A DNA stretch of 64,000 bases. It comes from Gemmatimonadota bacterium. Lineage in GTDB: Bacteria > Gemmatimonadota > Gemmatimonadetes > Longimicrobiales > Gaopeijiaceae. The position numbers and the translations under genes are program-made. Location: positions 32,001 to 96,000 of the forward strand of contig JAXHMG010000001.1 of assembly GCA_034521595.1 (NCBI GenBank). Reading direction: 5' to 3'. Each line of letters begins with the position of its first letter. The first letter of the stretch is position 1. Positions 50,682 to 53,513 of this stretch are shown one piece after another. The notes under the pieces were generated by a model. It saw only the letters and a program-made list of their open reading frames with translations. It did no database searches and was not told where the DNA came from.

Positions 50682-52124
50682 TCAGCTCTGTCCGGCCAAC
50701 GACGGCACGGGCCCGCCCACGCCCGCACGTCCCGGCGCCTCGTCCGCATCGACGACGTCGTCGTCCGCCTGGAAGACCTCCATGTCGGTCTCGCCCAACA
50801 CCCGGCTCGTGGCCGCCCCCGCCGTCATGGAGCCGCTCACGTTGATGGCGGTTCGCCCCATGTCGATGAGCGGCTCGATGGAGATGAGCAGCCCGGCCAG
50901 CGCGACCGGCAGGTTCATGGTGGAGAGCACGATGAGCGCGGCGAAGGTGGCGCCGCCACCCACCCCGGCGATACCGAACGAGCTGAGGGTGACGACGAGG
51001 ACGAGCGGCGCCAGGAAACCCAGCGACATGGGGTCGAGCCCCACGCTCGGCGCGATCATCACGGCGAGCATGGCCGGGTAGAGGCCGGCGCAGCCGTTCT
51101 GTCCGATGGTGGCGCCGAAGCTCGCGGAGAAGTTCGCGACCGCCGGCGAGACGCCCAATCGGCGGATCTGGTGCTCGATGTTGAGCGGAATGGCGGCAGC
51201 GCTCGAGCGGGACGTGAACGCGAACGTCAGCACGGGCCAGATCTTCTTGAAGAAGCGGGCCGGGTTGAGGCCGGTGAGGCCGAGAACGCCGGCGTGCATG
51301 GCGAGGATGAGGGCGAGCCCGAGGTAGGACGCGACGACGAAGCCCATGAGGCCGAGGATGTCGGAGACGTTCGAGGTCGCGACCACGCGCGTCATCAGCG
51401 CGGCCACACCGAAGGGGGTCAGGCGGATGACCATCCGGACCAGGCGCATGACCAGCCCCTGGAGCGCCTCGATGCCGTCCGTCACGCGGGCTCCGAGCTC
51501 CGGATTCTCCTTGCGCAGCCCCAGGGTCGCGATGCCCAGGAGCGAGGCGAACACGACCACGCTGATGATCGACGTCGGCTGTGCGCCGGTCAGCTCGTCG
51601 AACGCGTTGGTCGGCACGAACGAGAGGAGGAGCTCGGGCACGCTGAGGTCGGCCACCTCGCCCTGACGCGCCACCAGGTCCGCGCCCCGCTCGAGCTCCC
51701 GAGCGCCCTGCACCAGCCCGTCGGCCGTGAGCCCGAACAGCCGGGTCATCCCGATGCCGATGACCGCCGAGACGGCCGTGGTCAGCATGAGCACCCCGAG
51801 CACCACCGCGCTGATCTTGCCCAGAGAGCGGGCGTCGTCGAGCCGCGTCACCGCCGAGAGAATCGACACGAGCACCAGCGGCATGACGATCATCTGGAGC
51901 AGGCGCACGTACCCGCCGCCCACGAGCCCCACCCACGTCATGGTGTCGTCCACGACGGCGTGCTCGAGGCCGTACCCCCACTGGAGCGCGATCCCCAGAC
52001 AGATCCCCGCCACGAGGCTCATCATCACGTTGTTCGAGAGCGAGGTGCCACCCGCCTGGCGTCGGGCGAGCCAGACGAGGACGGCGGTAAAAACCGCGAG
52101 GTTCGCGAGGAGTGGGATGCTCAT
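50682..52124 (-). CDS. tcyP: L-cystine transporter (DAACS family)
   Basis: GYVRLLQMIVMPLV, SIISVVVF, FAFTSRSSAAAIPLN, FGATIGQNGCAGLYPAMLA, ISIEPLIDMGRTA. Confidence 0.92.
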   Translation of the reverse strand: MSIPLLANLAVFTAVLVWLARRQAGGTSLSNNVMMSLVAGICLGIALQWGYGLEHAVVDDTMTWVGLVGGGYVRLLQMIVMPLVLVSILSAVTRLDDARSLGKISAVVLGVLMLTTAVSAVIGIGMTRLFGLTADGLVQGARELERGADLVARQGEVADLSVPELLLSFVPTNAFDELTGAQPTSIISVVVFASLLGIATLGLRKENPELGARVTDGIEALQGLVMRLVRMVIRLTPFGVAALMTRVVATSNVSDILGLMGFVVASYLGLALILAMHAGVLGLTGLNPARFFKKIWPVLTFAFTSRSSAAAIPLNIEHQIRRLGVSPAVANFSASFGATIGQNGCAGLYPAMLAVMIAPSVGLDPMSLGFLAPLVLVVTLSSFGIAGVGGGATFAALIVLSTMNLPVALAGLLISIEPLIDMGRTAINVSGSMTAGAATSRVLGETDMEVFQADDDVVDADEAPGRAGVGGPVPSLAGQS

Positions 52125-52164
52125 GGGGAGCTCCGGAGTCGGGCATGCAGATGAAGGGGGAACG

Positions 52165-52192
52165 AAAAAAGGCCCTCCCGCAGGGGAGGGCC
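52165..52192 (-). terminator. Attenuator terminator in the tcyP leader
   Basis: GGCCCTCCC-CTGC-GGGAGGGCC-TTTTTT, ending 40 nt before the tcyP ATG. Confidence 0.9.
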
Positions 52193-52222
52193 GGACGGGA
52201 GAGCCGGGATGTCCGACTCGGT

Positions 52223-52321
52223 CTACGCGCTCGCGACTCCGCGCACGCGCCCGCCCGACGCTCCCGGGGGAGCGCCGCAACAACAACAGGAGGCGGTGGC
52301 GTTCGTGCGCGTGTGCATCAT
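52223..52321 (-). CDS. Poly-cysteine leader peptide (32 aa) MMHTRTNATASCCCCGAPPGASGGRVRGVASA
   Basis: TGT TGT TGT TGC at 52288-52277; overlaps alternative hairpins. Confidence 0.85.
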   Translation of the reverse strand: MMHTRTNATASCCCCGAPPGASGGRVRGVASA

Positions 52322-52327
52322 CACGTC

Positions 52328-52357
52328 AGGCTATACAGGTCGAAGTGGGTCCGTCAA
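52328..52357 (-). promoter_or_regulatory. Sigma70-type promoter implying a leaderless leader-peptide transcript
   Basis: TTGACG-18 nt-TAGCCT, then 6 nt, then ATG. Confidence 0.65.
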
Positions 52358-52409
52358 GGGCTCGGGCGGCCCATCGGGACCCCAGGGGCGGCAGGTGCAC
52401 GGCACTGCC

Positions 52410-53513
52410 TCAGCCCCACCGGAACCGGAGCCGCCCGTCCTCCTCCTCGACGCCCCCGCCCCACGGGCGGCTTTCCCGGTTCAACGTCCCGGCGAGCCAA
52501 CGCCGCTCCTCCCGATCCGGTCGCTGAAGGCGAAAGTCCCGGATGCGCATGGGCGTCATGACCAGCTCCTCCAGCGTACCGGAGGGCGCCAGGCGCGGGA
52601 AGTACATGAGGGTCAGCGAACCGCGGTACTCCTCGTGACCGCCGATCCCCTCGTAGTCGTTGAGGAAGTCTCCGGCGCCGTAGAGGATCAGGCGTCCCTC
52701 GTGCACCTCCATCCCCTTGGGGTGGTGGGAGGAGTGGCCGTAAACGACATCGGCCGCGCCGTGCTCCACGAGCCGGCGAGCGAAGAGACGCTCATCCTCC
52801 GGGATCTCGTATCCCCAGTTGCCACCCCAATGCACCGAGACCACGACCCGGTCGGTCTCCCGGCGTCGGGCCGCCACGTCCTCAGCGACCCGGTCCGCGC
52901 CCGACGGGTCCAGGGTCTCCAGGAAGCTGACCCCGGGCCGCTCCGGCCCGGCCTCCCACGCGGGGAAGACGCCAGCGGTGGGTGAGGCGTACGCGAAGAG
53001 CAGAATGCGCCCCCCGGGCGTATCCAGCACGACCGGATTTCCGGCGTCCTCCTCGTCCTCCCCCGCGCCGCAGGTGGCGATCCCGGCGTCAAGGACGCTA
53101 CGAAGGGTCTCCCGGAGGCCCTCCCGGCCCCAATCCAGGACGTGGTTGTTCGCCAGGACCACGGCGTCCAGCCCGACGGCGGTGAGGAGCGGAGCGTTCT
53201 GAGGGTGCATCCGGTAGTGGATCGCCTTGTCCGGCCAGGGCTCGCCGTGGGTCGTGACCGCCGTCTCCAGGTTCACCACCCGAACGTCCGGCGCCAGGGC
53301 CTCGAGCTCCTCCAGTGCGCTGCCCCACACGTAGTCGAAGGCCACCCTCTCGGGAATGGATGCGCCGGCCTCCTCGGCGATCCGAACGTAGGTCCGGGCG
53401 TCCTTCACATACGGCTCGTGGAGGGTCGGATCCACGGAGTGGGGAAGGACCTGGTCGATCCCTCGACCCGTCATCACATCGCCCGCCAGAAAGAGGGTCG
53501 TCGGGGCGTCCAT
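52410..53513 (-). CDS. CapA-family metallophosphoesterase
   Basis: LAGDVMTGRG, VNLETAVT, LANNHVLDWG, SVHWG, GHSSHH. Confidence 0.92.
   Translation of the reverse strand: MDAPTTLFLAGDVMTGRGIDQVLPHSVDPTLHEPYVKDARTYVRIAEEAGASIPERVAFDYVWGSALEELEALAPDVRVVNLETAVTTHGEPWPDKAIHYRMHPQNAPLLTAVGLDAVVLANNHVLDWGREGLRETLRSVLDAGIATCGAGEDEEDAGNPVVLDTPGGRILLFAYASPTAGVFPAWEAGPERPGVSFLETLDPSGADRVAEDVAARRRETDRVVVSVHWGGNWGYEIPEDERLFARRLVEHGAADVVYGHSSHHPKGMEVHEGRLILYGAGDFLNDYEGIGGHEEYRGSLTLMYFPRLAPSGTLEELVMTPMRIRDFRLQRPDREERRWLAGTLNRESRPWGGGVEEEDGRLRFRWG

Follow-up and report, generated by a model that had tools for sequence, protein, structure and literature searches.

Does a run of cysteine (Cys) codons at the start of a transcript decide whether a cystine transporter gene is transcribed? 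The question is raised by a 64,000 nucleotide (nt) stretch of DNA from a Gemmatimonadota bacterium (assembly GCA_034521595.1, contig JAXHMG010000001.1, positions 32,001–96,000 of the forward strand), termed the window here. All coordinates are positions in this stretch, and the leader and the tcyP-like gene that follows it are read on the minus strand. A first-pass annotation, made from the letters alone, described in front of this gene a short upstream open reading frame (uORF) with four consecutive Cys codons, a set of RNA segments that pair in mutually exclusive ways, and a terminator. The leader is likely to be a ribosome-mediated (leader-peptide) transcription attenuator that would read charged tRNA-Cys and control read-through into the TcyP-like gene. 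It very likely belongs to a known class, that of the leader-peptide attenuators, and what appears to be new is the Gemmatimonadota host and an uptake gene as the target of cysteine-keyed termination. Cysteine has long been missing among the classical attenuators of this class, and the locus represents a compact candidate Cys-responsive switch that is ready for testing.

Anatomy of the tcyP leader

The uORF spans positions 52223–52321 and contains 32 codons followed by a TAG stop codon at 52225–52223. Its translated sequence is MMHTRTNATASCCCCGAPPGASGGRVRGVASA. The ATG at 52321 is 6 nt past a −10-like box; alternative starts are a GTG at 52324 and an ATG at 52318, and the GTG version (52223–52324, 33 amino acids) is the one found in the list of open reading frames. 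The four Cys codons, TGT TGT TGT TGC, occupy positions 52277–52288, and segment 1 (GGCGCTCCC, 52276–52268) abuts the last of them. Positions 52269–52276 of segment 1, GGCGCTCC, form the 5′ strand of a hairpin, P1, whose 3′ strand is segment 2 at 52257–52265 (GGAGCGTC plus G52265). P1 is seen both in the fold and in compensatory changes between the two segments. The alternative partner of segment 2 is the 5′ strand of the terminator, and this pairing would form the antiterminator.

The sequence GGGCGGG at 52250–52256 pairs with CCCGTCC at 52193–52199 in the RNAalifold consensus, and the resulting long-range helix places segments 2 and 3 side by side. Two further hairpins are drawn by RNAalifold: P3 (52226–52249), which is in the 3′ part of the uORF and has the stop codon directly after it, and P4 (52201–52219). 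The intrinsic terminator hairpin is at 52171–52192 and consists of segment 3 (GGCCCTCCC), the loop CTGC and segment 4 (GGGAGGGCC). Together with the U6 tract at 52165–52170, evident in the sequence and in the terminator scan, it displays a 9-bp stem of which 8 pairs are G-C, a 4-nt loop and T6 over positions 52192–52165. The tcyP ATG at 52124 is 40 nt downstream of the U run, with a Shine-Dalgarno-like GGAG (52131–52134) 6 nt ahead of it; GGAG-type motifs are found in the equivalent position at other tcyP loci.

The minus-strand positions that the first-pass annotation gave for the uORF, Cys codons, segments, terminator and gap to tcyP are all correct in the sequence, and the terminator scan agrees with the 9-bp stem and U6 ending 40 nt before tcyP that it described. 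Its claim that segment 2, taken as 52265–52250, pairs with segment 3, taken as 52199–52184, at 15 of 16 positions was borne out by a check by hand, which gives one C·C mismatch and two G·U pairs. The exclusive nature of the 1:2, 2:3 and 3:4 pairings was checked by hand and by constrained folds.

The leader fold is more stable than all 200 of 200 shuffled sequences (z = −2.84). The terminator scan finds two terminator-like sites in 1.5 kb, where 0.2 are expected from shuffles. The second of these, TCGCGAACCTCGCGG followed by T5 at 52094–52108 on the minus strand, is inside tcyP codons 6–13; it is without a counterpart in one congener (G004) and is probably due to chance. Counted over both strands, the 3.49-Mb genome has eight runs of at least four consecutive TGY codons, and a genome-wide script for a Cys-run short open reading frame with a terminator returns three sites, of which two are convincing, the window leader and G000:C2:150103. 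By these counts the window leader is not a chance arrangement. A genome-wide list of runs of at least three Cys codons was set aside, as it consists mostly of off-frame coding sequence. An Rfam scan of positions 51900–52600 with E-values up to 10 gives noise only, the best scores being 13–19 bits compared with gathering scores of 41–70. The sequencing runs on record comprise five DNA runs, of which four include the stretch or part of it, and none recorded as RNA.

The arrangement of these parts suggests how the switch would work. The probable start of transcription would be the A of the uORF's first AUG, just past the −10-like TAGCCT, and a ribosome would translate the 32-codon uORF. With Cys-tRNA plentiful, or the leader untranslated, segment 1 (52276–52269) would pair with segment 2 (52264–52257) to give P1; segment 3 would then be available to segment 4 for the 9-bp terminator, and the polymerase would stop at U6 (52170–52165). 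With Cys-tRNA scarce, the ribosome would stall on the Cys codons (52288–52277) and cover segment 1, leaving segment 2 unpaired. The long-range helix GGGCGGG:CCCGUCC would hold segment 2 beside segment 3, segment 2 would zip onto the terminator 5′ strand as it emerges, the terminator would come too late to form, and tcyP would be transcribed. The parts with their positions and conservation, the covariation of P1 and the core helices, and the stability order are computed results; from them we infer the response to cysteine, the translation of the uORF, the stalling, the transcription start and the kinetic competition.

The tcyP-like gene (50682–52124) encodes a predicted 480 amino acid protein of the sodium:dicarboxylate symporter family (Pfam SDF, PF00375, E-value = 7.9e-99). 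NCBI/JGI give the name L-cystine transporter or TcyP to its relatives with 65–85% identity, which are found in Gemmatimonadota, Longimicrobium, Acidobacteria and Halomonas-type records; gammaproteobacterial homologues are 54–69% identical. NCBIfam gives weak GltP/DctA matches that are far under the cut-offs. The gene product is thus assigned as a TcyP-like L-cystine transporter, the substrate being predicted. The protein itself contains two Cys in 480 residues. The genome has a G+C content of 67–69%, its assembly contains one tRNA-Cys(GCA) gene, and its Cys frequency is 5.9 per 1000 codons; TGT is the minor Cys codon, with 24% of the 2,917 Cys codons in 852 long open reading frames.

The gene upstream of the leader (52410–53513, minus strand) encodes a PGA_cap/CapA-like protein (Pfam E-value 1e-76). 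It has a weak match to the lasso-peptide epimerase MslH (71.6 bits, compared with a cut-off of 700). No terminator is present between this gene and the tcyP leader.

Conservation and related leaders

True TcyP orthologues (76–85% identity) among 40 relatives are found only in six congeners, G001–G006; the family's other genera contain nothing closer than paralogues of about 30% identity. The comparison within the genus is therefore of seven leaders, those of the window genome and the six congeners, and public collections were used for the wider tcyP comparison because the orthologues among the 40 relatives are confined to the genus; no claim made here depends on the unpublished genome G025. 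The same arrangement is found upstream of tcyP in all six congeners. Alignment of these upstream regions was a check proposed in the first pass, and its outcome is favorable: all seven have the Cys run in frame, and the stems, P1 as well as the core helices, covary. The run comprises 4–7 Cys codons with synonymous TGT/TGC exchanges, and the congener leader peptides begin MHTRTRPTASCCCCGSPSGEAGG.., MRTLFACRCCCRCCGAPSGASGG.., MFQSIACRCCCCCCGAPPGASGR.., VRTLFACRCCCRCCGAPPGVSGG.., MSQPTAFRCCCCCCGAPPGASGR.. and MSTPTRLAVCCCCCCGSPPGEAGG... The N-terminal part of the uORF and the far-upstream region are variable, the TAG stop codon is in one shared alignment column in 7/7, and the terminator stem is invariant, with a T6–T7 tract in every species.

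The RNAalifold consensus for the genus displays P1 (the 1:2 pairing), then the long-range helix GGGCGGG:CCYGUCC enclosing P3, P4 and the uORF stop codon, and then the terminator. P1 has compensatory changes at two pairs, from GC to UA in two of the seven species and from UA to CG in one. Read as codons they are non-synonymous (A to S, A to E and S to A), which places the selection on the RNA. The 112-nt leader core is 83–90% identical to that of the congeners, compared with 76–81% for tcyP coding DNA, in all six comparisons.

An alignment of 11 leaders, the seven of the genus plus the distant L035, L042, L079 and L115, extends the covariation. Pairing is possible in 89.8% of cells, compared with 40–57% when partners are slid, and 11 of 40 pairs are changed on both sides, a number reached by 12 of 500 shuffles. 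The long-range helix (helix 2) is paired in 90.9% of cells and P3 (helix 3) in 91.9%, each with two pairs changed on both sides; P4 (helix 4) has five of seven pairs changed on both sides and 74% of cells paired. The terminator is present in all 11 and its stem is nearly invariant.

The −35-like hexamer TTGACG (52352–52357) and the −10-like hexamer TAGCCT (52328–52333) are separated by an 18-nt spacer, and the motif TTGAC[GC]-N18-TA[GC]C[CG]T is kept in all seven genus members. Because of this conservation it is assigned as a predicted promoter. In more distant tcyP leaders TAGACT is found in the same location. A transcription start at or near A52321 is plausible because the −10-like box stops 6 nt before the ATG, so that in the window genome the mRNA would be leaderless, as the first pass had proposed. 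The leaderless uORF fits the window and two congeners, where the distance from box to ATG is 6 nt in the window, 10 in G004 and 9 in G001. It does not fit the other four: in G002, G003, G005 and G006 the box is about 70 nt upstream of the uORF with an intervening 5′ hairpin, and a hairpin is found there likewise in L035 and in Longimicrobium-type leaders. The leaderless layout looks derived, and it is not required by the mechanism.

Beyond the genus, the species-genome survey covered the 80 best tcyP loci, with six flagged matches (five Pseudomonas loci and L101) outside the inspection. A Cys-run leader with a hairpin and U-rich tail precedes tcyP in seven of these 80 (L032, L035, L037, L038, L040, L041 and L079); no Cys-run leader was seen among the inspected gammaproteobacterial tcyP loci. 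The metagenome survey covered 76 tcyP loci with sufficient upstream DNA, the flagged L128 and L134 being outside the inspection, and gives another seven leaders, all GC-rich (L115, L116, L117, L119, L125, L139 and L169). Cys leaders of tcyP thus occur in Gemmatimonadaceae, Longimicrobium, Acidobacteria-labelled records and metagenome contigs. Tandem attenuators appear to precede tcyP in L035 (1044–1500), L079 (150–540), L115 (618–1000) and L125, where a window-type leader is followed by a ..CCRGC(H/R)PPPGD.. leader that has a different terminator of its own. L037 and L040 are titled uncultured Bifidobacteriaceae; their tcyP loci are of 66–70% G+C, the L040 upstream region is almost identical to that of the Acidobacteria-labelled L038, and the two taxonomic labels look doubtful.

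A second poly-Cys leader is present in the window's own genome at G000:C2:150101–150231 (L031, about 2040–2250; L208). Its peptide ends ..MTCRCCCPALPPGEAEGRPYM* and it comes with a hairpin and a terminator of its own. The genes downstream encode a RimK-like ATP-grasp protein and a luciferase-like monooxygenase resembling SfnG/SsuD, and orthologues of the leader are found in G002 and G003 (L220 and L221). Segment 2 (GGGAGAGG) and segment 3 (CCTCTCCC) of this leader are perfectly matched, with letters unlike those of the window leader. A covariance model, R1, built from the 11 aligned leaders recovers it with an E-value of 5.6e-10.

In a sample of 151 genomes of the phylum, the same model has matches in 16, one of them the window's own; the weakest matches are plain terminators. 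Leaders preceding homocysteine synthase (L193, L194 and L195) display Met and Cys codons (MAIRAASLMCMCMMCQC.. and MNTFALNLMCRISPC..), one preceding prephenate dehydratase (L196) displays Phe codons (MSRAYRFAFAFAAFLQ..), and one preceding a rhodanese-like gene (L201) reads ..CMCCRAC... A codon run is not obvious in the leaders before glutamate synthase (L199, L200 and L204). Within the genus there are MMMCCC-type leaders before SusC/RagA-like receptors (L217–L219) and an Ile/Leu/Val-rich leader (L222). A search of the window genome for the CCRGC/PPPGD leader type and for Met and Cys leaders gave none, one match resembling coding sequence. The window leader is one member of this wider set of related leaders.

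A tentative proposal, which we hold to be possible and somewhat short of probable, is that these leaders share a modular attenuator chassis that is found across Gemmatimonadota and in some Acidobacteria-labelled genomes, with the regulatory codons swapped according to the gene. It would be made up of a first hairpin of the CUCC-loop-GGAG form, which reads CUCUCC/GGAGAG in most siblings and GCUCC/GGAGC in the window; of a clamp helix; and of a look-alike terminator. Under the same proposal Cys codons would serve tcyP, the ATP-grasp/sulfonate-type monooxygenase operon and the rhodanese-like gene; Met plus Cys codons would serve homocysteine synthase and the SusC-like outer-membrane receptor; Phe codons would serve prephenate dehydratase, with the Ile/Leu/Val leader as a further case. 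The Cys members would then constitute a termination-based sulfur-scavenging “ribulon”, which the tandem attenuators before tcyP in Longimicrobium-type genomes would sharpen. The locus suggests that ribosome-mediated attenuation may be a general regulatory habit of Gemmatimonadota, and in uncultured bacteria of soil and sediment the leader may help to mark sulfur-starvation genes for annotation.

Competing folds and alternative explanations

The computed energies in the window are −14.5 kcal/mol for P1, −16.6 kcal/mol for the antiterminator extension (segment 2 on the terminator 5′ strand, stacked upon the long-range helix) and −20.2 kcal/mol for the terminator. The ground state of the free full-length RNA is P1 plus the terminator, with a terminator probability of 0.93. 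A stalled ribosome was represented by a mask with an assumed footprint from −15 to +12 nt relative to the A site, and the nascent RNA was cut before segment 4. With the mask on any Cys codon, segment 2 pairs with 7–8 of the 9 nt of the terminator 5′ strand in 7/7 species, with the exception of G002, where just 3 nt are paired at the first three Cys positions. In these folds a ribosome on the Cys codons thus masks segment 1 and leaves segment 2 free, and the 2:3 pairing forms in all seven; the antiterminator is plausible in geometry and in modeled energy. The 2:3 pairing forms again in the masked fold of the second leader of the genome. Among other leader classes, under the mask applied there, the P1 3′ strand pairs with the terminator 5′ strand in six of eight (a count that excludes L139, L117 and L119), the two without it being L035 type B and L041. 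The trp/his-type logic proposed in the first pass is therefore supported by the in-frame Cys run, the compensatory changes in P1, the conserved terminator and the masked nascent folds.

Several results weigh against attenuation by this scheme. When segment 1 is masked in the full-length leader of the window, the terminator retains a probability of 0.87–0.99 at three of the four Cys positions; this measure of termination is also an undercount, since a ribosome placed on the stop codon lets segment 4 pair with the P4 3′ strand in an alternative hairpin abutting the U tract. The first-pass suggestion to fold the leader with segment 1 blocked thus gives the 2:3 pairing in nascent RNA and not in the full-length molecule at those positions. 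In the cut RNA, four of seven species have the 2:3 pairing as their minimum-energy fold even with no ribosome in place. As the equilibrium fold keeps the terminator, and as 2:3 forms in these four without a ribosome, the decision would have to be kinetic; the decision of the trp attenuator is likewise understood as kinetic.

Further results concern the antiterminator and the start of the leader. The duplex energy of the terminator 5′ strand with upstream RNA is no better than that of shuffles in the window (z = +0.2), and z ranges from +1.2 to −3.3 across 23 scored elements (24 were entered, no terminator being found for L196); with strands that are all either C-rich or G-rich, the test does not discriminate. 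The eight antiterminator-specific pairs, 92% pairable, display no change on both sides, but their columns hardly vary. A hint of covariation in the antiterminator, the sole one across classes, comes from L197 and L198: with GGGTGGG as segment 2 and CCCACCC as segment 3, they exchange an A-U pair of the window for U-A. The induction by an antiterminator envisaged in the first pass is thus consistent with the masked nascent folds of 7/7 species, and neither covariation among the aligned leaders nor a duplex energy above shuffles accompanies it. At the 5′ end, a consensus promoter scan of the window leader makes no call, because TAGCCT agrees with TATAAT at just three of six positions, so that of the TTGACG-18-TAGCCT promoter claimed for the leader it is the conservation in 7/7 that stands. 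No Shine-Dalgarno motif was seen ahead of the uORF in G002, G003, G005 and G006.

The tcyP loci beyond the genus hold points on the same side. L042 has the tandem layout with a first leader whose Cys run has been lost, the Cys uORF is absent at the GC-rich tcyP loci L039, L058, L113, L114 and L124, and at L112, L120 and L121 the promoter-like box and terminator-like hairpin are kept and the Cys uORF is absent.

The sequence Pro-Pro-Gly pauses ribosomes, and the pause depends on EF-P. In the window (52262–52270, minus strand) and in many siblings the Cys run gives way at once to Pro-Pro-Gly (APPGA, SPPGE, PPPGD, LPPGE and SPPGG), so that the leader might sense general translation, or a peptide-dependent pause over P1, and not Cys-tRNA specifically. 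We consider this quite unlikely. The motif is not universal, as G004 reads SPSGE, G002 APSGA, L079 SPEGE, L037 SPSRE and L038 FLSRK, and it results from the translation of a C-rich/G-rich hairpin in one frame. What differing leaders have in common, and what varies with the gene that follows, is the regulatory codon run. If the chassis proposal is true, ribosomes pausing at Pro-Pro-Gly on the first hairpin might provide a timing device.

The terminator is the output in the attenuator reading, and a further alternative removes it from that role: the poly-Cys uORF would act on tcyP translation or mRNA stability, with the hairpin and U6 as a structural or stabilising element. The only poly-Cys leaders studied experimentally, those of mycobacteria, act on translation as far as the accessible text of their description goes. 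Some distant tcyP leaders have poor U tracts (GTTTTCGTTTC in L038, L116 and L169; TTGCCGTTTC in L117), and the hairpin without a Cys uORF in L112, L120 and L121 fits this alternative as well. The window hairpin is nonetheless a canonical terminator, with 9 bp, 8 G-C pairs and U6. Neither the minimum-energy nor the centroid fold gives the Cys tract a partner, the tcyP Shine-Dalgarno region included; that region is itself 31 nt past the U tract, and the overlap of the 1:2, 2:3 and 3:4 pairings is precisely what a termination switch requires. Action on translation or stability is thus very improbable here.

That the short open reading frame encodes a functional Cys-rich micropeptide (metal-binding, or a peptide precursor), its place before tcyP being incidental, would suit the conserved length, the Cys cluster and the weak epimerase match of the CapA-like protein, but is hardly credible, since the N-terminal residues are unconserved, the C-terminal residues change non-synonymously where RNA pairs are kept, the open reading frame travels with tcyP whereas the upstream neighbours differ, and sibling leaders exchange Cys for Phe or Met plus Cys to suit the downstream gene. 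Attenuation of transcription by a ribosome reading the Cys codons remains the likely explanation of the leader.

Comparison with known attenuators

Leader-peptide attenuators are familiar from enterobacteria in trpL, hisL, pheL, thrL, leuL and the ilv leaders. The window leader resembles these in having a short leader open reading frame with a run of cognate codons, the 1:2, 2:3 and 3:4 pairings, and a terminator with U tract before the gene. The order of stability is also alike, 1:2 being close to 2:3 and both being below 3:4. It differs in using cysteine, in controlling an uptake transporter and not a biosynthetic operon, in its Gemmatimonadota host and in its probably leaderless start. In the window leader 50 nt separate segments 2 and 3, and the long-range helix that links them has two hairpins and the stop codon of the uORF inside it. 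A sequence relationship to the enterobacterial leaders is not apparent; Rfam Phe_leader scores 15.8 bits on the window leader, compared with its gathering score of 55.

The literature search found no work on leader peptides or attenuation in Gemmatimonadota, supplementary files being outside its scope, and, judged by titles and the starts of abstracts, nothing relevant on riboswitches or terminators of this phylum. For attenuation of tcyP by a leader nothing relevant was found, and searches for Cys-codon attenuation gave mycobacterial work only; PMC13236596 and PMC13096801 treat mycobacterial cases only, in the parts of these texts that were accessible.

The first-pass annotation had pointed to the leaderless poly-Cys uORFs of mycobacteria, and the parallel holds as an analogy. 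In both cases consecutive Cys codons are found at the mRNA 5′ end, the genes concerned are sulfur or cysteine genes, a stalled ribosome would be the sensor, and several loci are involved. The leaders are not kin, the window being from Gemmatimonadota and not from an actinobacterium, and the mycobacterial open reading frames control translation and not termination: their effect is to expose a masked Shine-Dalgarno site (Canestrari et al. 2020, bioRxiv 10.1101/834739). According to the accessible part of that preprint, the Cys tract pairs with the Shine-Dalgarno sequence of the next gene, no competing terminator is involved, and uORF-mediated attenuation for cysteine was previously undescribed (Canestrari et al., bioRxiv 10.1101/834739). 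In the window the output is a terminator, which intervenes between the uORF and tcyP, and the Cys tract is unpaired, so that the pairing of Cys tract and Shine-Dalgarno site that marks the mycobacterial type is not found.

Candidate Cys leader peptides upstream of cys/cbs genes in Actinobacteria are likewise short open reading frames with runs of Cys codons. They are described, in the accessible part of the report, as having no terminator hairpins, and Rho-dependent termination is suggested for them (Seliverstov et al. 2005, PMC1262725). The window leader, unlike these, has a terminator hairpin.

The first-pass annotation knew of no described Cys-sensing attenuator with an intrinsic terminator on tcyP in this lineage. 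For tcyP none was found in the literature search; one has been predicted at cysS in Rhodobacterales, which is the sole terminator-based Cys case that we found in print, as far as the accessible text shows (PMC8632094). This is the uORFC-8-2 motif, a predicted attenuator with a Cys-codon uORF and a U run fitting an intrinsic terminator (Brewer et al. 2021, PMC8632094). The window leader shares with it, as described there, a Cys-codon uORF and a U run within a predicted ribosome-mediated attenuator. In uORFC-8-2 two tandem Cys codons are inside the first of two stems, the gene is that of a tRNA synthetase and the hosts are alpha-proteobacteria, whereas leaders of the window type have 4–7 Cys codons located 5′ of the first stem and tcyP downstream, and so are distinct from that motif on its published description.

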